DNA from: a plasmid
Assembly (NCBI RefSeq): GCF_057098645.1
Contig: NZ_JBXSPU010000004.1
DNA length: 11,304 bases
Direction: 5' to 3' (one strand)
In this document: piece by piece, positions 342 to 11,304 of the stretch
Numbering within the stretch: position 1 is the stretch's first letter
How the letters are laid out: each line of letters begins with the position of its first letter
Translations under genes and position numbers: made by a program
Notes under the pieces: generated by a model
What the model saw: only the letters and a program-made list of their open reading frames with translations
Databases searched by the model: none
What the model was told of the DNA's origin: nothing

Positions 342-536
342 TTATGGTTCCGTGCCGTACTGCGCTTCAAAGTGTGTCTGTATGCTGTTACCGAGTTCTT
401 CCGCCAGTTCGTGCAGTCGTTCGCACATGGCGGCCTGTTCGTCTGCATCCAGTGCATCCAGTTTTTCGAGCAACGTCAGGCTCTGGCTTTTGATAAATCG
501 CGCCATGTTGAGCGCGGTCTGCTGCTGTTTGTTCAC
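342..536 (-). CDS. rop: Rop/Rom, RNA I-RNA II pairing modulator
   Basis: 64-aa ORF MNKQQQTALNMARFIKSQSLTLLEKLDALDADEQA... aligns along its length with the 63-aa ColE1/pMB1 Rop (MTKQEKTALNMARFIRSQTLTLLEKLNELDADEQA...); it sits at the expected place beside bom. Confidence 0.9.
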   Translation of the reverse strand: MNKQQQTALNMARFIKSQSLTLLEKLDALDADEQAAMCERLHELAEELGNSIQTHFEAQYGTEP

Positions 537-1158: not shown

Positions 1159-1353
1159 ATGAATCAGGACAAAGCAATTTATTTAGAAAATAAATATTTT
1201 TCACCCGCAAACGAAGCTGTCAGACTGGAGCGTGAAGGCGATTACATTGGAGCATGGAAAAAATGGAATGATGCGCTTCATTATGCCAAAGGAGAAAATA
1301 TAGGTTGGTGTATAGCCAGAGCTGAATATTGTAAAAAGACAGGCCGGTTTTAA
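1159..1353 (+). CDS. Hypothetical small protein (64 aa), possibly a helical TPR-like fold
   Basis: ORF with AT-rich upstream region and A/T-rich codon usage unlike the flanking GC-rich DNA; only a weak Shine-Dalgarno. No family recognised. Confidence 0.35.
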   Translation: MNQDKAIYLENKYFSPANEAVRLEREGDYIGAWKKWNDALHYAKGENIGWCIARAEYCKKTGRF

Positions 1354-1367
1354 TTCTGGCGGGGTTT

Positions 1368-1386
1368 CAAAGGGGCGCCCCCTTTG
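1368..1386. other. GC-rich stem-loop just after the 64-aa ORF stop
   Basis: caaagggg-cgc-cccctttg, an 8-bp perfect stem with 3-nt loop; no following T-tract, so not a canonical intrinsic terminator. Confidence 0.3.
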
Positions 1387-1489
1387 GCACCTCGACGTAT
1401 CAAAATGCACCAGCATTTTGTATACAGTCGGTCATGTGCCTCCAGGATTTACCATCAAAAACGCCCCTGTAGTTAATCCTGAATCAAGG

Positions 1490-1584
1490 TATAACTAAGA
1501 TATAATTAGCGTATAACTAAGGCATAACTAAAGTATAACTAACTTGGTGTGCATATAATTAACATATAACTAATGTATAACTAA
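1490..1584 (+). repeat. Array of about eight direct repeats of TATAACTAA phased at 11 bp (iteron-like)
   Basis: Copies start at 1490, 1501 (tataattag), 1512, 1523 (cataactaa), 1534, 1554 (tataattaa), 1565 and 1576; one degenerate slot near 1545. Confidence 0.7.
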
Positions 1585-1770
1585 CGGTTCACCAACGGAT
1601 CGCATGTAGTAGACGCTACATAAAAAATCCTGAAATGGAGGATTCGTCATAAAGAGATTCTTTTTTTTAGCGTTCTGATGCAGAACAGGGCAAACACCGC
1701 AAAAATGATGAAAAACTGATTAACCATACTGTCTGTATTCTGAATGAATTACGAAGCATAGCGATAAATT

Positions 1771-1797
1771 AAAAAATCCCCCTGGATTACAGGGGGA
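1771..1797 (-). terminator. Intrinsic-terminator-like hairpin plus U-tract (minus strand)
   Basis: Plus strand aaaaaa-tccccctg-gatta-caggggga: 8-bp perfect stem; on the minus strand the hairpin is followed by TTTTTT. Confidence 0.4.
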
Positions 1798-1904
1798 AGC
1801 TATCAGAGTTTGAGTAATGAGAAATATTATTTTGGAGAGAGCATCACAAATGCGCTCTTTTCCAATCTGCCGTAACCATCGGCAAAAGACAATCAGGACA
1901 GGCG

Positions 1905-1931
1905 AAAAAATCCCCCTATATGGCAAGGGGG
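1905..1931 (-). terminator. Intrinsic-terminator-like hairpin plus U-tract (minus strand)
   Basis: Plus strand aaaaaa-t-ccccct-atatggca-aggggg: 6-bp GC stem; minus-strand T6 follows. Confidence 0.4.
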
Positions 1932-2028
1932 TGTCAATGAGGACATGGCAATTGTGAGTTTTGTGTGTGTTTTATGTGTTGCAGTTTGCAACGTCAGAAA
2001 TTTGCCGTAGTTCGTCATGAGAGACAAC

Positions 2029-2070
2029 AAAAAAATCCCCCGTGACTGGTGGAGGCCAGGGCAAGGGGGG
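2029..2070 (-). terminator. Intrinsic-terminator-like imperfect hairpin plus U-tract (minus strand)
   Basis: Plus strand aaaaaaa-tcccccgtgactgg...ccagggcaagggggg; CCCCC/GGGGG and CTGG/CCAG arms; minus-strand T7 follows. Confidence 0.3.
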
Positions 2071-2279
2071 TAGCAAATGCCTGAATAATTTTCGTAGTTT
2101 TGATATACCCATCGTTGCAACCGCAACGGGATGAATTTGCCGCAGTTGTGCGCGAAAAACAATCCTGATTCCGGGACAGGATGTGTAATCGTATAACCGC
2201 GCACGCACGGCTATGCGATTACCACCTGGTCAGGGCTTTGCCCCGACACCCTCGACACCGTTCCCGCGATACGATAGAA

Positions 2280-2483
2280 GGGGTTCTAAGCCGGAAACCC
2301 AGAAAATTCCGTCACCAAAGCTAGTAATCGACAGATTTGCATGACGTTGAATAGGTGACGGGTTATGTGACGATATTTGGTGTCGAAATCGTTGTTTCAG
2401 TGACAGTCACTCAATCGATCGTTTGTGTGACACTCCCGTAAAAACTTGTCGCAGAAAAATCCAGGTTTCCGGCCGGGAACCCC
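2280..2483. mobile_element. 204-bp miniature element with Tn3-family-like terminal inverted repeats and 5-bp target duplication (TIME-like, non-autonomous)
   Basis: Left end GGGGTTCTAAGCCGGAAACCCAGAAAATTCCG; right end read inward GGGGTTCCCGGCCGGAAACCTGGATTTTTCTGCG. Both start GGGGTTC like the transposon IRs at 7516 and 11303. Flanked by identical TAGAA at 2275-2279 and 2484-2488. No ORF inside. Confidence 0.6.
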
Positions 2484-2571
2484 TAGAACATCAGGGCGCG
2501 TTTCCGGGTAAACGCATGTTAATGACCGGGAATTCATTGATCAGGGACCGGAGACGCGCTACAAAACTCCT

Positions 2572-2713
2572 GCGCGTTTCTGGCATCAACTGACCATGGG
2601 GATGGTTTGGCAGTAGCAGCAAGCGCCAGAAACGCGCTCAAAACGCCTCTGGCGGCAAAACCATTGCCCGATGCAAAAAAGTGCGTTACAAAGCCTCTGA
2701 GCGCGTTTCTGGC
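2572..2713. repeat. Nested inverted copies of GCGCGTTTCTGGC forming long-range hairpins, followed by a T-tract
   Basis: gcgcgtttctggc at 2572-2584 and 2701-2713; its reverse complement at 2624-2636. The pair 2624-2639 / 2698-2713 is a perfect 16-bp inverted repeat. T6 at 2716-2721. The 15-mer CTGAGCGCGTTTCTG recurs at 3466-3480 inside cer. Confidence 0.5.
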
Positions 2714-3097
2714 GTCTTTTTTGTTGCTGTGTCGCTATACTCGTTGTCAGATTCGCGCTCAATCATCACTGATTAATCTGCGCTTATCCTTCGACTGATC
2801 ACGCTGGTATTTTTTGACAACCGGTTCCCATGAAAACGCCAGACGGGAACCGTCATCCGCACCCTCTGACATGCTGGGGATTAAAAATCCCTGTGCCGCA
2901 CAGCCGGCGTTGCATAAAATTCCGCTCTGCGATGAGTATTGTTTAATCAAAAATCCCCTCGTTTTCTCCAGAAAAACGCGAGTCTGTTCTCATGCCCCGG
3001 ATGCCCACACCCCACGCAAAACCAACTTTTTTCTGATTTGCTTTTTAAATCATGTTGTTATGGTTTGAAAAATATATTTTCTTATTCAGATTTATAC

Positions 3098-3270
3098 AAA
3101 AGCGAGTCGTCGGCGACTACTGGATGATTCGGCAACGAGTCGTCGGTGATTTATCGATGACTCAACACACTGTCTCCCTGGTGTTCAGAAAAAGCGAGTC
3201 GCCAGAGAGTCGCGAGGAAAAATACTGGATGACTCGCTGATGGCTCCCGGGGTGAATCGCTCACGACTCG
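3098..3270. repeat. Cluster of GAGTCG / CGACTC-containing direct and inverted repeats
   Basis: (G/A)CGAGTCGTCGG at 3101-3113 and 3134-3146; ACTGGATGA(T/C)TCG at 3118-3130 and 3224-3236; GAGTCGCC and GAGTCGCG at 3196-3213; CGACTCG at 3264-3270. Confidence 0.5.
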
Positions 3271-3299
3271 TCTGTAACTACTGTCTGATTTCTTCTCAT

Positions 3300-3516
3300 C
3301 AGGGCTGAAAACGTCCGAAAATGCGCCTTATGGGAATCAGGCGCGCCCAAACCGATCGCCATTCAGTTTCATGCATAGTCATGCAGTGCCATGAAAACAA
3401 TCCTGACGTATTTTTCCGGTTTACCCGGGGGGAAAACATCTCTTTTTGCGGTTTTTGCGTCAGAATCGCGCTGAGCGCGTTTCTGCGGTGCGTACAATTA
3501 AGGGATTATGGTAAAT
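3300..3516 (+). other. cer-type multimer resolution site (accessory sequences plus XerC/XerD core)
   Basis: Core at 3487-3516 reads GGTGCGTACAA-TTAAGGGA-TTATGGTAAAT, which is the ColE1 cer XerC arm, 8-bp central region and XerD arm as I recall them. About 190 bp of upstream accessory sequence includes an ARG-box-like segment near 3360-3385. Left boundary approximate. Confidence 0.8.
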
Positions 3517-3524
3517 GTCTCCCT

Positions 3525-3947
3525 TTACTGCCTGCCCTCGTAGCCATCAAGATAAACCGCAGAAATCGTGTCAGCCAGCAGCTTCATTTTTTCCGGTGAT
3601 GGCATATCACCGTTCGTGTATTTTCTGCCAGCAAAGGTTGTTGTGCTCCGGAGTGAGTGAAAAAATTTTTCTGAGTGGAATTCTTTTACACGTTGCTGTG
3701 CCGTTTCTGCTGATACTCCGGCTGCTTTGTCTTTCATCCCCATATCCCGGAACTGCTGAAAGAACGGGTGCATCATACGTATGGTGTCTGCTTTCTGGGT
3801 GTGGAAGTTAGGATCAAATCCATCATCTGAAGCATAAACATAATGCCGGGTATGTCGTTCCAGGCTGGTCTTTGGTGTGCATCCTGTAAGAGCTATTGTT
3901 GCTGTTATCAGAGGTATCAGAAGCAGCCTGACAGCGGCAGATCTCAT
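3525..3947 (-). CDS. Putative lipoprotein (140 aa), function unknown
   Basis: N-terminus MRSAAVRLLLIPLITATIALTGC has a signal peptide and lipobox L-T-G-C; AGGAG Shine-Dalgarno 7 nt upstream on the minus strand. No family recognised. Confidence 0.6.
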   Translation of the reverse strand: MRSAAVRLLLIPLITATIALTGCTPKTSLERHTRHYVYASDDGFDPNFHTQKADTIRMMHPFFQQFRDMGMKDKAAGVSAETAQQRVKEFHSEKFFHSLRSTTTFAGRKYTNGDMPSPEKMKLLADTISAVYLDGYEGRQ

Positions 3948-4068: not shown

Positions 4069-4347
4069 GTGAAAAAATGTGTGCCAGTCCTGCTTTTTAG
4101 TGTTCTTTCTGCTTCGGTTGCCAGTCATGCGGACAGCAATGTTTTTCAACAAAAGGCCGAGAAGACAAAAAACGGCATTGTTGCGGATGTTAATGCCAGA
4201 CAGAAAATGTTCAGTAACAGACTGAAGATACAACTTCAGATCGATGAGTTGAGAGCAGAGCTGGCTGGCACCAGAGATGCCCAAAAAAGAGAGGATTTGC
4301 GTAAAAAACTGGAGTCTCTGGAGCGGCAAAAGAAATCCTTACGCTGA
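4069..4347 (+). CDS. Putative secreted/periplasmic coiled-coil protein (92 aa, GTG start)
   Basis: MKKCVPVLLFSVLSASVASHA has a signal peptide with an AxA-like cleavage motif (SHA-D); the mature part is highly charged with heptad-like K/E/L/R pattern. AGGAA 7 nt upstream of the GTG. Confidence 0.5.
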   Translation: MKKCVPVLLFSVLSASVASHADSNVFQQKAEKTKNGIVADVNARQKMFSNRLKIQLQIDELRAELAGTRDAQKREDLRKKLESLERQKKSLR

Positions 4348-4656
4348 TGGGGGCGTATTTTCCCCGGTTTCTTCCATAACCTTTTTACCGTTCAGATATT
4401 TACGGGCGAGGCGAATGCGTCTTGCCTGGTATACCGCCGAGTAAGCCTGGGTGGGATTCACACCGTTACTGATTTCACTGACCACATGACGCTGATCAGC
4501 CAGTGTCAGCGTGTAAACCTGTTTCTGGATGAGGTCACGGGCTTTGTCATGCTCATATCCGGCAGCAACCAGGGTGTCGAGAAGTCGCTTGTCTGTTTTG
4601 TTCAGTTTATGGCGGGGAGATTTGCTCACATCGTTCTCCGTTTTTTCATGATCCAA
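4339..4656 (-). CDS. Hypothetical small basic protein (105 aa) with a possible helix-turn-helix
   Basis: ORF divergent from the colicin promoter; the segment VVSEISNGVNPTQAYSAVYQARRIR looks like an HTH (turn at NG, then a recognition helix). No family recognised. Confidence 0.45.
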   Translation of the reverse strand: MDHEKTENDVSKSPRHKLNKTDKRLLDTLVAAGYEHDKARDLIQKQVYTLTLADQRHVVSEISNGVNPTQAYSAVYQARRIRLARKYLNGKKVMEETGENTPPSA

Positions 4657-4761
4657 CAGTTTTATATCTCATCCTGATTTGCTCCGGTGTTCTGTTTCGA
4701 CGTTCTCAATGTCTGCCTCCTTGTAGTGTGATCTTTATTGCAAAAATGAAAATCCATGTTC

Positions 4762-4825
4762 TTGACATGGGCAATGCTGAGTAGTAGGTTTTCACTGTAC
4801 ATAAAACCAGTGGTTATATGTACAG
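4762..4825 (+). promoter_or_regulatory. SOS-regulated colicin promoter with two overlapping LexA boxes
   Basis: -35 TTGACA at 4762-4767; overlapping LexA boxes CTGTACATAAAACCAG (4795-4810) and its partner tggttatatgtacag (4811-4825), each CTG-N10-CAG, in the classic colicin arrangement. Confidence 0.8.
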
Positions 4826-4873
4826 TATATTGTTTTTAATTTATTGTTTTAATTATCAAAGAGGAATTTCTTT

Positions 4874-6346
4874 ATGGATAAAGTCACTGATAATTCTCCA
4901 GATGTGGAGAGCACAGAATCTACTGAGGGGTCATTCCCAACCGTTGGGGTTGATACTGGCGATACGATTACAGCGACGCTTGCAACTGGAACTGAAAATG
5001 TTGGTGGAGGCGGTGGAGCATTTGGTGGGGCCAGTGAAAGTTCTGCTGCGATACATGCAACCGCTAAATGGTCTACCGCGCAGTTGAAAAAACATCAGGC
5101 TGAACAGGCTGCCCGTGCTGCTGCGGCTGAGGCAGCATTGGCAAAAGCGAAATCTCAGCGTGATGCCCTGACTCAACGTCTCAAAGATATTGTTAATGAC
5201 GCTTTACGTGCTAATGCCGCCCGTAGTCCATCAGTAACTGACCTTGCTCATGCCAATAATATGGCAATGCAGGCAGAGGCTGAGCGTTTGCGCCTTGCGA
5301 AGGCAGAGCAAAAAGCCCGTGAAGAAGCTGAAGCAGCAGAAAAAGCGCTCCGGGAAGCAGAACGCCAACGTGATGAGATTGCCCGCCAACAGGCTGAAAC
5401 CGAGCATTTGTTAGCTATGGCTGAGGCTGCTGAGGCTGAAAAAAATCGACAGGATTCTCTTGATGAAGAGCATCGGGCTGTGGAAGTGGCGGAGAAGAAT
5501 CTGGCTGAGGCTAAAGCTGAACTGGCGAAGGCTGAAAGCGATGTACAGAGTAAGCAAGCGATTGTTTCCAGAGTTGCAGGGGAGCTTGAAAACGCTCAAA
5601 AAAGTGTTGATGTGAAGGTTACCGGATTTCCTGGATGGCGTGATGTTCAGAAAAAACTAGAGAGACAATTGCAGGATAAGAAGAATGAATATTCGTCAGT
5701 GACAAATGCTCTTAATTCTGCTGTTAGCATTAGAGATGCTAAAAAAACAGAAGTTCAGAATGCTGAGACAAAATTAAAAGAAGCTCAGGATGCGCTTGAG
5801 AAGAGTCAGGTAAAAGATTCTGTTGATACTATGGTTGGGTTTTATCAATATATAACCGAACAATATGGAGAAAAATACGCAAGAATTGCTCAGGATTTAG
5901 CGGAAAAGTCTAAAGGAAAGAAAATTAAAGGTGTTGATGAAGCTTTAGCTGCATTTGAACAGTATAAAAATGTACTGGATAAGAAATTCAGTAAGGTTGA
6001 TAGGGATGCTATTTTTAATTCTTTAGAGTCTGTTAATTATGATGAGTTATCTAAGAATTTAACGAAGATATCAAAGTCGCTTAAAATCACTAGTCGAGTA
6101 TCTTTTCTATATGATGTTGGTTCTGATTTTAAAAATGCAATAGAAACTGGTAACTGGCGTCCTTTATTTGTCACGCTGGAGAAAAGTGCGGTAGATGTAG
6201 GTGTTGCAAAAATTGTGGCATTAATGTTTAGTTTTATTGTCGGCGTGCCTCTTGGTTTCTGGGGGATTGCTATTATCACAGGTATTGTTTCTTCTTACAT
6301 AGGGGATGATGAGTTGAACAAGCTTAATGAATTGCTAGGTATTTAA
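4874..6346 (+). CDS. cta: Pore-forming colicin of the E1 family, colicin 10-like (490 aa)
   Basis: Gly-rich N-terminal region, then [20 protein letters not shown]...[13 protein letters not shown]...LAHANN...ERLRLAKAE matching colicin E1 as I recall it. C-terminal channel domain ends [21 protein letters not shown]...LGI (E1: GIWGIAIVTGILCSYI...EVLGI). The length and the TonB-box-like DTITATL at residues 30-36 fit colicin 10; the symbol is tentative. Confidence 0.9.
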
Positions 6347-6633
6347 TTTCTCTTTAGAGAGTAATATATGAAACTTGGCAATCCTACTGGGATTGCCATT
6401 AATAAATAAAACAATGCAGATAACTTGCATAAATACCAGGGCTCTTTTTTAAATTTTGTATTTTCTTTGATATATCTAGATATGGTTAATTTAGAGTATG
6501 GATATAGCAATACATGTATTGACGATATAAAGACAAATAACAAAGGAGTGTTATCATGGTCGTTAAATATTAAAATAAGAATCCAGGGTATAAGTGATTC
6601 AGGTAAATTATGTAGGTAGTATTTTAAATGCAT
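6343..6633 (-). CDS. cti: Colicin immunity protein, E1-type integral membrane protein (96 aa)
   Basis: Convergent with the colicin gene and overlapping its stop. [10 protein letters not shown]...[22 protein letters not shown]...[14 protein letters not shown] parallels the colicin E1 Imm protein (MSLRYYIKNI...[22 protein letters not shown]...LVLAIPFGLLGLFI). Confidence 0.85.
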
Positions 6634-6662
6634 AAGTATTTTTACTTTTGTTGGAGAGGGAT

Positions 6663-6794
6663 ATGAAAATAATAATTTTTCTAATTACAATATTATTCTT
6701 GTCAGGATGTCAAGCAAACTATATTCGTGATGTACAAGGAGGAACCGTTGCGCCATCTTCGTCTTCTGAACTGACGGGGATCGCGGTTCAGTAG
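6663..6794 (+). CDS. ctl: Colicin lysis (bacteriocin release) lipoprotein, 43 aa
   Basis: Not in the ORF track. Translates to [43 protein letters not shown] with lipobox LSGC; the mature part is essentially identical to the ColE1 Kil mature sequence as I recall it. GGAGAGGG Shine-Dalgarno upstream. Confidence 0.85.
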
Positions 6795-6802
6795 AAAAGA
6801 TC

Positions 6803-6828
6803 AAAGGATCTCTTGAGATCCTTTTTTT
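6803..6828 (+). terminator. Intrinsic terminator after the lysis gene, overlapping the RNA II promoter -35
   Basis: aaaggatct-cttg-agatccttt: 9-bp perfect stem followed by TTTTTTT; same arrangement as in pMB1/ColE1. Confidence 0.7.
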
Positions 6829-6841
6829 CTGCGCGTAATCT
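6813..6841 (+). promoter_or_regulatory. RNA II (replication primer) promoter
   Basis: TTGAGA at 6813-6818 and TAATCT at 6836-6841 with 17-bp spacing, positionally equivalent to the pBR322 RNA II promoter. Confidence 0.55.
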
Positions 6842-6848
6842 GCTGCCT

Positions 6849-6957
6849 GTAAACGAAAAAACCGCCTGGGGAGGCGGTTTAGTCAAAGGTTAAGTCAGTT
6901 GGGGAACAGCTTAACCGGGTAACTGGCTTCAGCAGAGCGCAGATACCAAAAACTTGT
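6849..6957 (-). ncRNA. RNA I antisense copy-number regulator
   Basis: Antisense to the 5' ~110 nt of RNA II; its 5' end corresponds to the complement of cagataccaaaaacttgt (pBR322 RNA I begins ACAGTATTTGGTATCTG); three-stem-loop region. Ends approximate. Confidence 0.65.
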
Positions 6958-7478
6958 CCTTCTAGTGTAGTCAAAATCAGGCTGATACTTCAAGAACTCT
7001 GTTACTAACTTATAAATCTCGCTCTGCTAACCCGGTTACCAATGGCTGCTGCCAGTGGCGTTAAGTCGTGTCCTTTCCGGGTTGGACCCAAGAGAACAGT
7101 TACCGGAGAAGGCGCAGCAGTCGGGCTGAACGGGGGGTTCCTGCATACAGCCCGGCCCGGAGCGAACTGCCTAAGTCGCCCCGAGATACCAGAAGACGTG
7201 AGCTATGAGAAAGCGCCACGTGTCCCGCAAGGGAGAAAGGCGGAAAAGGTATCCGGCAATCGATATGGCGGGAACGTGGGGGCGCAGGAGGGAGCGATTC
7301 ACCGGAAACGGTGATGATCTTTAAGCCACGTCGGGTTTCGCCACCGCTGGCGGATTTCATGGTTGAGTCGGAAGACTCCCACAGATGCACCTAAAAAGTG
7401 TCTGTTTTGTGAAGTCCGTCAGGGGGGCGGAGCCTATGGAAAAAGCGCCTCCGGCGCGGCCTTTCGGGGTTTTCGTTT
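6849..7478 (+). ncRNA. RNA II primer precursor through the replication origin of a ColE1-type replicon
   Basis: Collinear with pBR322 RNA II/ori as recalled (ggtaactggcttcagcagagcgcagatacc..., gctatgagaaagcgccacg..., gtcaggggggcggagcctatggaaaaa..., ctcacatgttctttcc), but with many substitutions and an extra segment near 7330-7410. Ends approximate. Confidence 0.7.
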
Positions 7479-7515
7479 CTTGCTCACATGTTCTTTCCGG
7501 CGTTATCCCCTGATT

Positions 7516-7553
7516 GGGGTTCCGTGGGAATTTCTGCGATAACACCCGCTAAG
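7516..7553 (+). repeat. Left 38-bp terminal inverted repeat (IRL)
   Basis: GGGGTTCCGTGGGAATTTCTGCGATAACACCCGCTAAG. Confidence 0.85.
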
Positions 7554-7699
7554 CGATTCCTCCCTGACGGAAATCACTTGTTTTCCGTCAGGTCCTGCAG
7601 TTGAAGAAAATTGAATCCATAAATCTGTGATTTTTTGCGTGACAAACCCTGTCGGAATGAGAAACTGTACGGAAACTTCAATTTTAAGGTTTGTCGTAC
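7554..7699 (+). promoter_or_regulatory. res site (resolvase binding subsites) and tnpR promoter region
   Basis: 30-bp palindrome cctgacggaaa-tcacttgt-tttccgtcagg at 7563-7592, plus further TGTCGGAA / TGTACGGAA / TGTCGTACA half-sites at 7648-7700, between IRL and tnpR. Confidence 0.55.
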
Positions 7700-8323
7700 A
7701 TGTTGATTGGTTATATGCGGGTATCAAGCAATGATGAACGTCAGTCAGTTTCTTTGCAGCGTGATGCGTTGATTGCTGCTGGAGTGGATCCCCGGCATTT
7801 ACATCAGGATCATGCTTCAGGTGCTCGTGATAATCGCCCGGGACTTAAGTCCTGTCTCGCTGAACTTCGCGAAGGTGATGTACTGATAGTCTGGAAACTG
7901 GATCGACTTGGTCGTTCACTCTCACATTTGCTCCGAATTATTGAAGACCTGAAAATTCGTGGTATTGCTTTCCGATCATTGACTGAATCTATTGATACAA
8001 CAACGCCACACGGCTCGTTCCTCTTTAACCTTTTTGGCACGCTCGCGGAGTACGAAAGAACACTTATCACAGAACGCGTTAATGCTGGTCTGGCTGCTGC
8101 TCTCCGGCGGGGGAGAAAAGGCGGAAGGCCACCGGCGATAGATGCTGAAAAGGTTGATCAAATCCTCGCAGCTCTGGAAGGAGGTGCCAGTAAAGCGTCA
8201 GTATGTCGCGCATTCAGTGTGCCACGCTCAACGCTCACCGATACTCTACGACGAATTGGCTGGGCCGGACCTGGGGGGCGTAATCTGACAACGGATCAGA
8301 GCAATGTCATTTCTCGACTCTAA
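7700..8323 (+). CDS. tnpR: Serine recombinase (resolvase), Hin/Gin invertase-like
   Basis: MLIGYMRVSSNDERQ...RPGLK...GDVLIVWKLDRLGRS...GIAFRSLTESIDTTTP...GRKGGRPPA parallels Gin (MLIGYVRVSTNDQ...GDTLVVWKLDRLGRSM...GINFRSLTDSIDTSSP...GRIGGRPPK) as recalled. I place the start at ATG 7700 (AAGG about 10 nt upstream); the ORF track starts at an upstream TTG, 7691. Confidence 0.85.
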   Translation: MLIGYMRVSSNDERQSVSLQRDALIAAGVDPRHLHQDHASGARDNRPGLKSCLAELREGDVLIVWKLDRLGRSLSHLLRIIEDLKIRGIAFRSLTESIDTTTPHGSFLFNLFGTLAEYERTLITERVNAGLAAALRRGRKGGRPPAIDAEKVDQILAALEGGASKASVCRAFSVPRSTLTDTLRRIGWAGPGGRNLTTDQSNVISRL

Positions 8324-11270
8324 ATCGTACGATACGCTTTTTGGATTACCTGAACTTTATGAGGATGCACTTCCCCGGTTTTCGCTCTCCTGCGAGGATA
8401 TTGCATTCGCCAGAACTCATCGTCGATCTCATAACCGTCTGGGTTTTGCCATTCAGCTTGCACTTGTCCGTGATCTCGGTCGTACACTGCGTGCAGGAGA
8501 GATTCCCCCGGAGGCTGTTATCACCGTTGTTGCGGAACAACTGGATATTGACCCTGCTGTTTTTACACTTTACGCACAACGTGAGGAAACCCGCCGGGAA
8601 CATGCCCGCGAAATAGTTTCGGCTTTGGAGCTTCGTTCCGTCCGGAGTAGCGATTACAGAATGCTCATTATCGCGGCTACACGCGAAGCAGCAACCACCG
8701 AAAAAGGACTGCCGATCACCAGAGCAGTTATCAATAAGCTGAAGGACCAGAAGTTACTTGCCCCTGCTCCGGCACAACTCATCCGTCTGGCAATGGCGGG
8801 CCGGGCGGCTGCCCGTCGCCTTTCTTATCGGGAACTCATCAGGGATCTGAAACCTTCATCCATTAGCGCTCTCGAGCAGTTGCTTACCGAACGAGTCGGA
8901 GAAAAGAGCATTTTAGGCTGGATAGCTGAAGCGCCGGAAGGCGTGAAACTCAAGAATCTTAAGGGGTTAATTGCCAGGCTGGAGGTATTACGAACAGCGG
9001 CAATCTCCGATGAGCAACGTAAACGGATTCATGTAAACCGTTACGGTATTATTGCCCGGGATTCTCGCGTTTTACATGCGCGTGAAATACAACGAATGGC
9101 ATCCGAACGCTGTCATGCCACGCTGGTAGCCTTTGTTATTGAAAAGCAGGCAGCAATTACAGATCTGGCAATTGATATGTTCTGCAAATTGATTGGCAGC
9201 ACGAGGCGCAGAGCAGAGATAAGCCAGAAAGAGCGTCGTCTGAAAGCCGCTGAAGTACTTGAAGTCGTAGCTCAGGATCATATTAAGTTGGGACGGGCTC
9301 TCCTGGCAGCACGTGACGGTAATACTGATATTGAATCTGTAATAACAGCATCACTCGGCTGGGAAGGTTTGATTGCCAGTATGGAGGCTGCAGCTTCGGT
9401 GGCATCTTCCCATCACTGTTCTGAACTGGATGAACTTATCGGACGACAAAAATCATTACGTAAGCTTGGACGACTCATTTTCAGCGCTTTTTCTTTCAGA
9501 GCTTTTCGCCCGGATGATAGCGTTTTGTTGGCGATTGGGTATTTGCAGGCGTTCTATCATGGCCGAAAATTACCCAAACAAATTCCGCTCGATTTTATGT
9601 CCCATAAATGGCGACGTCGTGTCATCCATGGAGAAAATACCGATCTGCAGGCGTGGGAAGTCGCCGTATTCGTTCATTTGCGGGAACGCCTGAAAACAGG
9701 TGACATATGGGTTGATGGTAGTCGGGCCTGGCGTAGTTTTGAGGACTACCTTCTTCCTCACCATGTTTTCGGGCAGATGCGGGCAGAATCCCGGCTGGGA
9801 CTTGCCATTCCGGACAACTTTGCTGAATGGCGGGCTGAGCGAACCACCACACTCAACGCAAAACTGAAAGCGCTGGCAAAAGCTGCTTCGGAGAATGCCA
9901 TACCCGATGCAGAACTTTCCAGCAGAGGGTTGTCTGTGTCTCCGATTCGCGAAGAAGAGAGCGACAAAATTAAGGCTCTCAGCCGTAAACTCTACATGCT
10001 GGTACCACGCATCAGAATTACCAGTTTGCTGGCAGAAGTTCATAGCTGGACCAGTTTTCTTGATTGTTTCACCCATTATCGCACCGGGGAACAGGCGGAA
10101 GATGAAGCTGCACTTATGGCTGCGATCCTTGCCGATGCGACGAATGCGGGAGCAGAACGGATGGCGCAGAGTTCCCGGGGTGTCACCATTCACCAGATGA
10201 TGGTAATGATGGATCGTCATTTACGCACTGAAACCTATGCGTCTGCCACATCAGTTCTGGTCGATGCGCAACAGGAACATCCTTTTGCTGCTATATGGGG
10301 GGATGGGCATGTGTCATCCTCGGACGGGCAGTTTTTTCCTGCGGGTGGACGAGGAGAAGCCAGCCTCGAATATAACGCCAAATACGGCAAACGACCTGGC
10401 GCGTCGATTTATGGTTTTTTATCGAACCGTTTTGCATCCTTTTTTTCCAGAATGATTCAGGCCTCTGAAAGCGAGGCTCCCTACGTACTTGACGGCTTAC
10501 TTCATAACGAAAGTTCTGTGGTAATTCATGAGCATGCCACCGATACAGCCGGTGCGACTGAAACAACATTTTCAATGTTTCACTCTTTTGGTTACAGACT
10601 CATACCCCGTATTCGCAACCTCGGCAGTCGCAGGTTGTACGTTATTTCCCCCTCAGAGGAATATAAACCACTTGATGCCCTGATCGCCGGAAAGGCCAAA
10701 ATGGAAGTAATAGAACAGCACTGGGATGAAGTTCTGCGGCTTAAGGCCTCGATCGGCGCTGGTCTGGTACCACCATCGGTAATACTGAAAAAGCTGGCAG
10801 CATCTCCGAGACAAAACAGGCTCAATCTGGCCCTGCGTGAAATGGGACGTATTGAACGCTCAATTTTTATCTGTGACTGGTTGCTTGACACTCGGTTACG
10901 TCGCAGATCACACGCAATCCTCAACAAAGGCGAAAGCCGCCATGCACTTGCCCGCGCTATTTTTCTTCACCAACTGGGCGAATTCCGGAACAGGGCTGCC
11001 GAGACAATGGCTCACAGGGCATCGGGCCTCAACCTTGTTGTTAATGCAATAATTCTGTGGAACACGGTCTATCTCAGTCGGGCTGTTGATTACATTCGCA
11101 GCCAGGGGATCATTATACCGGAAGAGCTCTTGTCCAGTGTATCACCACTACCATGGGGTCATATCTCGCTCACTGGAGATTACCTGTGGAACGAAATTGA
11201 CCATCCCCTTGAACGATACAGGCCACTTCGTACTAATCGCTTCAATCCAAAGAACTTCACTTTTCCTTAG
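8304..11270 (+). CDS. tnpA: Tn3-family DDE transposase (988 aa)
   Basis: HNRLGFAIQLALVRDLG, NKGESRHALARAIFLHQLGEFRNR and NAIILWNTVYLSRAVDYIRSQG mirror Tn3 TnpA motifs (HNRLGIALQIGCVRFLG, NRGESRHAVARAICHGQKGEIRKR, NAVVLWNTIYMQAALDHLRAQG). Overlaps the tnpR 3' end by 20 nt. Confidence 0.93.
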   Translation: MSFLDSKSYDTLFGLPELYEDALPRFSLSCEDIAFARTHRRSHNRLGFAIQLALVRDLGRTLRAGEIPPEAVITVVAEQLDIDPAVFTLYAQREETRREHAREIVSALELRSVRSSDYRMLIIAATREAATTEKGLPITRAVINKLKDQKLLAPAPAQLIRLAMAGRAAARRLSYRELIRDLKPSSISALEQLLTERVGEKSILGWIAEAPEGVKLKNLKGLIARLEVLRTAAISDEQRKRIHVNRYGIIARDSRVLHAREIQRMASERCHATLVAFVIEKQAAITDLAIDMFCKLIGSTRRRAEISQKERRLKAAEVLEVVAQDHIKLGRALLAARDGNTDIESVITASLGWEGLIASMEAAASVASSHHCSELDELIGRQKSLRKLGRLIFSAFSFRAFRPDDSVLLAIGYLQAFYHGRKLPKQIPLDFMSHKWRRRVIHGENTDLQAWEVAVFVHLRERLKTGDIWVDGSRAWRSFEDYLLPHHVFGQMRAESRLGLAIPDNFAEWRAERTTTLNAKLKALAKAASENAIPDAELSSRGLSVSPIREEESDKIKALSRKLYMLVPRIRITSLLAEVHSWTSFLDCFTHYRTGEQAEDEAALMAAILADATNAGAERMAQSSRGVTIHQMMVMMDRHLRTETYASATSVLVDAQQEHPFAAIWGDGHVSSSDGQFFPAGGRGEASLEYNAKYGKRPGASIYGFLSNRFASFFSRMIQASESEAPYVLDGLLHNESSVVIHEHATDTAGATETTFSMFHSFGYRLIPRIRNLGSRRLYVISPSEEYKPLDALIAGKAKMEVIEQHWDEVLRLKASIGAGLVPPSVILKKLAASPRQNRLNLALREMGRIERSIFICDWLLDTRLRRRSHAILNKGESRHALARAIFLHQLGEFRNRAAETMAHRASGLNLVVNAIILWNTVYLSRAVDYIRSQGIIIPEELLSSVSPLPWGHISLTGDYLWNEIDHPLERYRPLRTNRFNPKNFTFP

Positions 11271-11303
11271 CGTGTGTTATCGCAGAAATGCCCACGGAAC
11301 CCC
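11266..11303 (-). repeat. Right 38-bp terminal inverted repeat (IRR)
   Basis: Reverse complement reads GGGGTTCCGTGGGCATTTCTGCGATAACACACGCTAAG; differs from IRL at positions 14 and 31. Confidence 0.85.
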
Positions 11304-11304
11304 T

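Follow-up and report, generated by a model that had tools for sequence, protein, structure and literature searches.

The window analysed here is an entire circular plasmid of 11,304 bp (NCBI RefSeq assembly GCF_057098645.1, contig NZ_JBXSPU010000004.1), and the element under study is its colicin activity gene together with the genes and signals that form an operon with it. The open reading frame (ORF) starts with ATG, encodes 490 amino acids (aa) followed by a stop codon, and is intact, with the N-terminus as transcribed in the initial annotation, a reading of the DNA made without database searches, which had described the product as a mosaic colicin. The operon has the following parts.

4762–4767 and 4785–4790, plus strand: promoter-like hexamers TTGACA and TAGGTT, separated by a spacer of 17 nucleotides (nt), as read from the sequence
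4795–4810, plus strand: first predicted LexA (SOS) box, CTGTACATAAAACCAG
4810–4825, plus strand: second predicted LexA (SOS) box, GTGGTTATATGTACAG, overlapping the first by one base
4860–4865, plus strand: ribosome-binding site AGAGGA upstream of the colicin ATG
4874–6346, plus strand: colicin activity gene, 490 aa
6343–6633, minus strand: immunity gene, 96 aa, matching PF17500 (CKI) end to end (E-value, E, 1.4e-55)
6663–6794, plus strand: lysis (release) lipoprotein gene, 43 aa, with lipobox LSGC, matching PF02402 (E 2.3e-24)
6803–6824, plus strand: stem-loop with a T run, downstream of the lysis gene and probably the terminator of the operon, bordering the ColE1-type origin region

The locus is a complete, standard colicin-immunity-lysis operon. 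The gene order was confirmed: between the two plus-strand genes for the colicin and the lysis protein sits the immunity gene on the minus strand, transcribed towards the colicin gene and sharing 4 nt with it at the colicin stop codon. A promoter directly upstream of LexA boxes is the layout typical of ColE1-type colicin operons, and dual overlapping LexA boxes are an established arrangement at colicin promoters. Compared with CTG-N10-CAG, CTGTACATAAAACCAG has no mismatch and GTGGTTATATGTACAG has one, and the −10 hexamer TAGGTT is weak and was not listed by a consensus scan. The predicted pair of boxes lies between the promoter and the start codon, with the lysis gene downstream, as in an SOS-regulated colicin operon. 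The lysis protein is 100% identical to that of the colicin 5 plasmid L001 and 98% identical to that of pColK-K235. NCBIfam holds no named equivalog for the colicin, the immunity protein or the lysis protein.

Within the colicin, four successive parts and four shorter elements can be told apart, all on the plus strand.

4874–5029: residues 1–52, N-terminus rich in Gly, Ser, Thr and acidic residues, predicted to be disordered
4961–4975: residues 30–34, DTITA, candidate TonB box
5030–5488: residues 53–205, TolC-binding helical hairpin, by homology
5198–5260: residues 109–129, equivalent of the E1 'TolC box' (E1 residues 100–120), with Pro119 at its apex
5489–5788: residues 206–305, receptor-binding helical hairpin, presumed to bind Tsx
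5789–6343: residues 306–490, pore-forming domain (PF01024)
6086–6145: residues 405–424, a stretch within the pore domain
6203–6301: residues ~444–476, hydrophobic hairpin of the pore domain

In a megablast comparison with plasmids and complete Escherichia coli genomes, three related operon types were returned. The first, encoding a 'colicin-like pore-forming protein' and a colicin K immunity gene, is 96.5% identical over 2.3 kb; the second, the annotated colicin 10 operon cta-cti-ctl, is ~90% identical; the third is the colicin K operon, for which the match is confined to the 3' part. An exact-sequence look-up identified the protein of the first type as colicin 5 (source names 'colicin 5' and Colicin-5, RepID CE05_ECOLX; P0121). 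Over its whole length the window colicin is 97% identical to colicin 5 (475/490, i.e., 15 substitutions), 92% to colicin 10, 62–63% to colicin K and 55% to colicin E1; the E1 reference of 522 aa, against which the shorter length of 490 aa had correctly been noted, was taken from ColE1 record NC_001371, where the gene spans the record start.

The similarity is distributed unevenly over the domains. In the domain alignment, residues 1–52 are 100% identical to colicins 5 and 10, 27% to E1 and 25% to K, and match colicins 5 and 10 only, among the colicins compared; the view that the first ~40 residues are not of E1 type is thereby borne out. The string DTITA is indeed present at residues 30–34. 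Canonical TonB boxes include DTITV of FhuA, and DTITA, which resembles such boxes and lies in the predicted disordered region, is a plausible candidate for the TonB box of this colicin. A full-text literature search for DTITA and other TonB-box strings returned nothing on the boxes of colicins 5 and 10, and the klebicin E paper gives other boxes.

Residues 53–180 are 99% identical to colicins 5 and 10, 79% to E1 (101/128) and 19% to K, in agreement with the E1-like stretch that had been placed at about residues 55–180. In phmmer searches, residues 29–204 matched the ColE1-T chain of the ColE1-T:TolC cryo-EM entry 6wxh_D (E 7.4e-57) and residues 54–222 matched klebicin C (7nna; E 3.5e-16). Colicin E1 contacts TolC through T113, A116, H117, N119, N120, R129 and R131, with P110 at the hinge (PMC9020818). 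All of these are conserved in the alignment at an offset of +9, as P119, T122, A125, H126, N128, N129, R138 and R140.

Residues 206–305, the central part that had been described as unlike E1, are 30% identical to it and represent the domain common with the Tsx-binding colicin K (81%); identity to colicins 5 and 10 is 96 and 97%, respectively. Residues 210–262 are almost invariant among colicins K, 5, and 10, and the apex loop of the hairpin, residues 247–254, falls in KVTGFPGWR, invariant in the same three colicins. The loop is likely to be the Tsx-binding tip.

The pore-forming domain matches PF01024 at residues 306–487 (E 2.7e-30, 106 bits vs a cut-off of 23.4) and the E1 channel domain structure 2i88 with E 9e-71, which places it in the E1-type subgroup. 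The channel domain had been said to follow E1 closely; it is of E1 type, but the closeness does not hold, identity over residues 306–490 being 61% to E1 vs 96% to K, 95% to colicin 5 and 81% to colicin 10. Residues 405–424 have the same sequence in the window colicin, colicin 5 and colicin K; in colicin 10, 15 of these 20 residues are different. This stretch was reportedly mapped by Pilsl and Braun, in J Bacteriol in 1995, as the determinant of colicin 5 vs colicin 10 immunity specificity. The Pfam search of the window colicin gave PF01024 only, the Tol-type ColA_N domain (PF22348), which colicin K matches, being absent.

The immunity protein is 96% identical (92/96; N26H, I34V, L61F, T92S) to the colicin K immunity protein Cki (IMMK_ECOLX), 67% to Cti of colicin 10 and 29% to that of E1 (E 0.13); the E1 protein, Cei, matches PF03526 and the window protein PF17500. 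It is thus, as far as sequence can tell, an immunity protein of the colicin K/5 type. A difference from the E1 immunity protein had been noted before, and the guess made from it, of a specificity other than that of E1, appears right. The K and 5 plasmids examined share one identical immunity protein. Another colicin encoded at L003 (NZ_CP077651.1, 1275–3034) has a pore domain 77% identical to that of the window colicin and a 'Cki family' immunity protein 60% identical to the window's; this colicin/immunity type is neither colicin 5/K nor colicin 10 and, like the further types P0123, P0005, and P0013, appears uncharacterised.

Taken together, the gene is, on present comparisons, a natural colicin 5-type allele, neither colicin 10 nor a new kind of colicin, and the locus is read as encoding a colicin 5-type toxin in an SOS-regulated colicin-immunity-lysis operon on a ColE1-type plasmid, with a probability of about 0.9. 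It is placed with colicin 5 and not with colicin 10 because the pore domain, residues 405–424, and the immunity and lysis proteins side with colicin 5/K. The choice offered by the initial annotation, colicin 10 itself or a new variant, was therefore the wrong one. The mosaic it had described is real, in that a TonB-box N-terminus precedes a TolC-binding segment like that of E1, a receptor domain unlike that of E1 and a pore domain of E1 type, but it is not new: it is the known architecture of colicins 5 and 10, which Pilsl and Braun are said to have published already in 1995.

The exact 490-aa protein is likewise public and not novel (P0124: EFA4762928.1, EFD9247071.1, EFN5621766.1, EHS1279771.1; UniRef UPI0006A60123), and occurs on 91 contigs. 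The gene index lists the exact colicin in 175 blocks of the collection, mostly contigs of 5–10 kb derived from E. coli genomes and metagenomes of the human gut. For the immunity protein, too, the exact sequence has been deposited (P0136, 129 contigs). The initial annotation had foreseen that the protein might prove to be known through near-complete identity to colicin 10; known it is, in that its exact sequence had been deposited, but its identity to colicin 10 is only 92%. Source names for the exact protein and for sister alleles are 'colicin-10' or 'colicin-like pore-forming protein', yet the protein would be of colicin 5 type with K/5 immunity, and the main value of the analysis lies in this corrected annotation. 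One sister allele (P0001, 493 aa; GCA_002006965.1, MTPL01000152.1, 4465–5946) differs solely by an extra AEA in an Ala/Glu-rich repeat near residue 183, which suggests slippage in the repeat; it is carried by a 7.5-kb plasmid contig that lacks the transposon and has 99.8% identity to the backbone of the window.

Nothing contradicts this reading, but several points limit it. Each functional step is drawn from homology to characterised relatives; the allele departs from the references by 15 substitutions in the colicin and four in the immunity protein; and the last residue of DTITA is Ala, vs Val in canonical TonB boxes. An AlphaFold model, built from a shallow alignment of 10 sequences, is poor overall (predicted template modelling score 0.37), with a predicted local distance difference test score (pLDDT) below 50 in the pore domain. 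What the model does support, as a prediction, is only the disordered N-terminus and the two hairpins. Residues 1–57 have pLDDT below 50 and no secondary structure, the helix is broken at 116–120, and the receptor hairpin is the most confident part, with pLDDT of 91–96 at residues 201–240 and 261–300 and 83–85 across the apex, where the loop is formed by residues 247–254.

Colicins 5 and 10 bind Tsx, need TolC, have a TonB box and need TonB (Braun, 2024, PMC11658791; PMC9558359), and colicin K likewise uses Tsx as its receptor (PMC9558359, Table 2; PMC11658791). For colicin 5, the same two papers support killing that depends on Tsx, TolC and TonB-ExbBD, and cross-immunity with colicin K. In klebicin C, the N-terminal helical hairpin opens along the TolC channel and the disordered N-terminus presents a TonB box to the periplasm; colicins E1, 5, and 10 share the TolC-binding domain of klebicin C (Housden et al., 2021, PMC8324772). 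A colicin 5-type toxin at this locus would act as follows. Upon DNA damage, LexA would leave both boxes, the colicin and lysis genes would be transcribed, and the lysis lipoprotein would release the toxin. The tip of the central helical hairpin (residues 206–305) would bind the nucleoside porin Tsx on the target E. coli, and the E1/klebicin C-like hairpin (residues 53–205) would open at Pro119 and thread through TolC. The disordered N-terminus could then reach the periplasm, where the TonB box, probably DTITA, would engage TonB-ExbBD and so energise import. Finally, the C-terminal ten-helix domain would insert in the inner membrane as a voltage-gated pore and depolarise the cell, the producer being protected by its 96-aa membrane immunity protein of the predicted colicin K/5 specificity group. 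The colicin 5/10 family currently attracts interest for its TonB-driven toxins, which are thought to traverse the TolC efflux channel.

Among known systems, colicin 5 (Cfa; CE05_ECOLX; WP_000362089.1), a well-studied pore-forming toxin of E. coli, is the closest: it likewise has 490 aa, the same four-part architecture and operon layout, and a ColE1-type plasmid, and the window colicin agrees with it, at the level of sequence, in the N-terminal region, the receptor domain, residues 405–424 and the Cki/Cfi-type immunity protein. Colicin K (Cka, pColK-K235) shares the receptor and pore domains and the immunity and lysis proteins, at the identities given above, but has 548 aa and an unrelated N-terminal translocation region with ColA_N (Tol/OmpF route), residues 1–180 of the window colicin being only 19–25% identical to it. 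Colicin E1 has in common the TolC-binding hairpin with its TolC-box contacts, the E1-type pore domain, the dual LexA boxes, and a ColE1-type replicon; it differs in its length, in the use of Tol instead of TonB, in its BtuB receptor and in the type of its immunity protein. Klebicin C (7nna, 7ng8) shares a homologous N-terminal helical hairpin after a disordered TonB-box-bearing N-terminus, and dependence on TolC and TonB; it differs in that it needs no separate receptor, has an rRNase instead of a pore domain, and carries the TonB box MVSLG at residues 16–20 (PMC8324772).

The differences from reference colicin 5 (CE05_ECOLX) are A177E, K209N, D293E, I299T, K305Q, S336A, A346S, S349K, F351I, S352K, S353G, K363Q, I372F, A383S, and V468I. 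Residues 1–205 are thus identical to colicin 5 save for A177E, and residues 384–467 are identical to both colicins 5 and K. A patch map of the operon was obtained from sliding-window and informative-site comparisons with colicins 5, 10, and K. The operon is colicin 5/10-like up to ~5840, matches colicin K only at 5869–5930, is colicin 5/K-like over 6032–6265, matches colicin 10 only at 6275–6360, and is colicin 5/K-like again from 6401 on. The K-only patch explains S336A, A346S, S349K, F351I, and S353G, and the colicin 10-only patch explains colicin substitution V468I and, in the immunity protein, T92S; S352K, inside the K-only patch, matches none of the three reference colicins. Most substitutions lie in the K-like patch (residues 336–353) or match colicin 10 near the 3' end, a pattern consistent, at the sequence level, with recombination within the 5/10/K family, and these small K-like and colicin 10-like conversion patches are the only distinctive features of the allele. 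Natural alleles such as this one offer a small set of tolerated substitutions.

The G+C content steps down inside the colicin gene, from 0.52 at 5001–5500 to 0.33–0.38 in the receptor and pore part and the immunity gene (5501–7000), which is consistent with separate origins of the modules. Together, the patches and the G+C drop agree with the common view that recombination has assembled colicin genes and patched them anew. The locus also illustrates how domains have been shuffled, and short patches introduced by gene conversion, among colicins 5, 10, K, and E1, and will not surprise specialists.

The same substitutions bear on the alternative that survives best, although it is unlikely: that, by drift or recombination, the 5/K-derived colicin and its immunity variant have become a subtype diverging in immunity within the K/5 group, in which the colicin escapes Cki/Cfi or the immunity protein fails against colicins K and 5. 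Ten of the substitutions relative to colicin 5 lie in the pore domain, including the K-like block 336–353 and V468I in the hydrophobic hairpin, but most of these changes merely restore colicin K residues, and residues 384–467, with 405–424 among them, are unchanged from colicins 5 and K. The four immunity substitutions are conservative, and colicin K and colicin 5 plasmids themselves carry one and the same immunity protein; for a new subtype speak L61F, a site where each immunity type of the family has a residue of its own (Cki L, the window protein F, Cti M, the L003 type T), and the joint occurrence of the colicin variant and the immunity variant on shared backbones. If true, this alternative would mean that colicin-immunity diversification via small recombination patches had been caught in the act.

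A colicin 5-type identity has also to be weighed against that of colicin 10 (Cta) itself, which would bring with it the cta-cti-ctl operon and the immunity specificity of colicin 10. Both proteins have 490 aa, the first ~300 residues, comprising the N-terminus and the TolC-binding and receptor domains, are 97–100% identical, and several database entries give the protein cluster label 'colicin-10'. These labels, however, stem from automatic naming in a 90%-identity cluster that also holds true colicin 5. The pore domain is 81% identical to colicin 10 vs 95–96% to colicins 5 and K, with 15 of 20 residues changed in 405–424, the immunity protein sides with Cki and not with Cti (96 vs 67%), and nucleotide identity to the colicin 10 operon falls to 58–72% over 6040–6220 and 6400–6640. 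On the strength of the pore domain and the immunity protein, colicin 10 was rejected as the identity of this gene and is regarded as very improbable.

An E1-like function, in which the colicin would bind BtuB and be taken up through TolC in a Tol-dependent manner, is scarcely credible despite the 79% identity over the TolC-binding segment and the E1-type pore domain, and was rejected on the receptor domain, which is far closer to that of Tsx-binding colicin K (81%) than to that of E1 (30%), and on the 52 N-terminal residues, unrelated to E1 and identical to those of the TonB-dependent colicins 5 and 10; the immunity protein, too, is of another type.

Outside the colicin operon, the plasmid carries the following features.

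342–536, minus strand: Rop
6853–6954, minus strand: RNAI of a ColE1-type replicon (RF00106, 74 bits)
7514–11303: cargo-less Tn3-family transposon of 3,790 bp, flanked by a 5-bp target duplication TGATT at 7509–7513 and at 11304 plus 1–4
7691–8323: tnpR of the transposon
8304–11270: tnpA of the transposon

An ANR-family regulator and an Exc2 lipoprotein are also encoded. Of the complete public records, NZ_CP062882.1 (E. coli O157:H16, pig faeces, Quebec) is the nearest: it equals the window in length, and its backbone is 99.95% identical. Its transposon interrupts the colicin gene (window 5311–5315, duplication AAAAA), so no intact colicin is present. In metagenome contig L008 (ERZ27263663 k141_119203), every segment is 100% identical to the window and the transposon lies at ~4719–4726, directly upstream of the colicin promoter. 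One 3,790-bp transposon is thus found at three sites in a near-identical 7.5-kb backbone, the window copy lying just past the origin; transposon-free backbones also occur (L006, L010, L011, L012), and the transposon is present with 100% identity in numerous further plasmids of E. coli, one of them of type IncI1. The possibility that the window is an artificial rearrangement of NZ_CP062882.1 was considered and rejected, as proper 5-bp duplications at both sites and the third arrangement in the metagenome contig argue instead for independent natural insertions.

Over ~2.1 kb of the backbone (window 1400–3500) there is no ORF longer than 103 aa, and related records have almost no annotated genes there. 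In the region ~1350–3550, a tblastn search with ColE1 MbeA found no mob similarity and Rfam gave no match. The interval from the gene for the Exc2 lipoprotein to the promoter of the colicin gene holds two conserved small ORFs, at 4069–4347 (plus strand, 92 aa) and 4339–4656 (minus strand, 96–105 aa), for which neither Pfam nor NCBIfam gave a match; every colicin 5, 10 or K plasmid examined has them annotated as 'hypothetical'.

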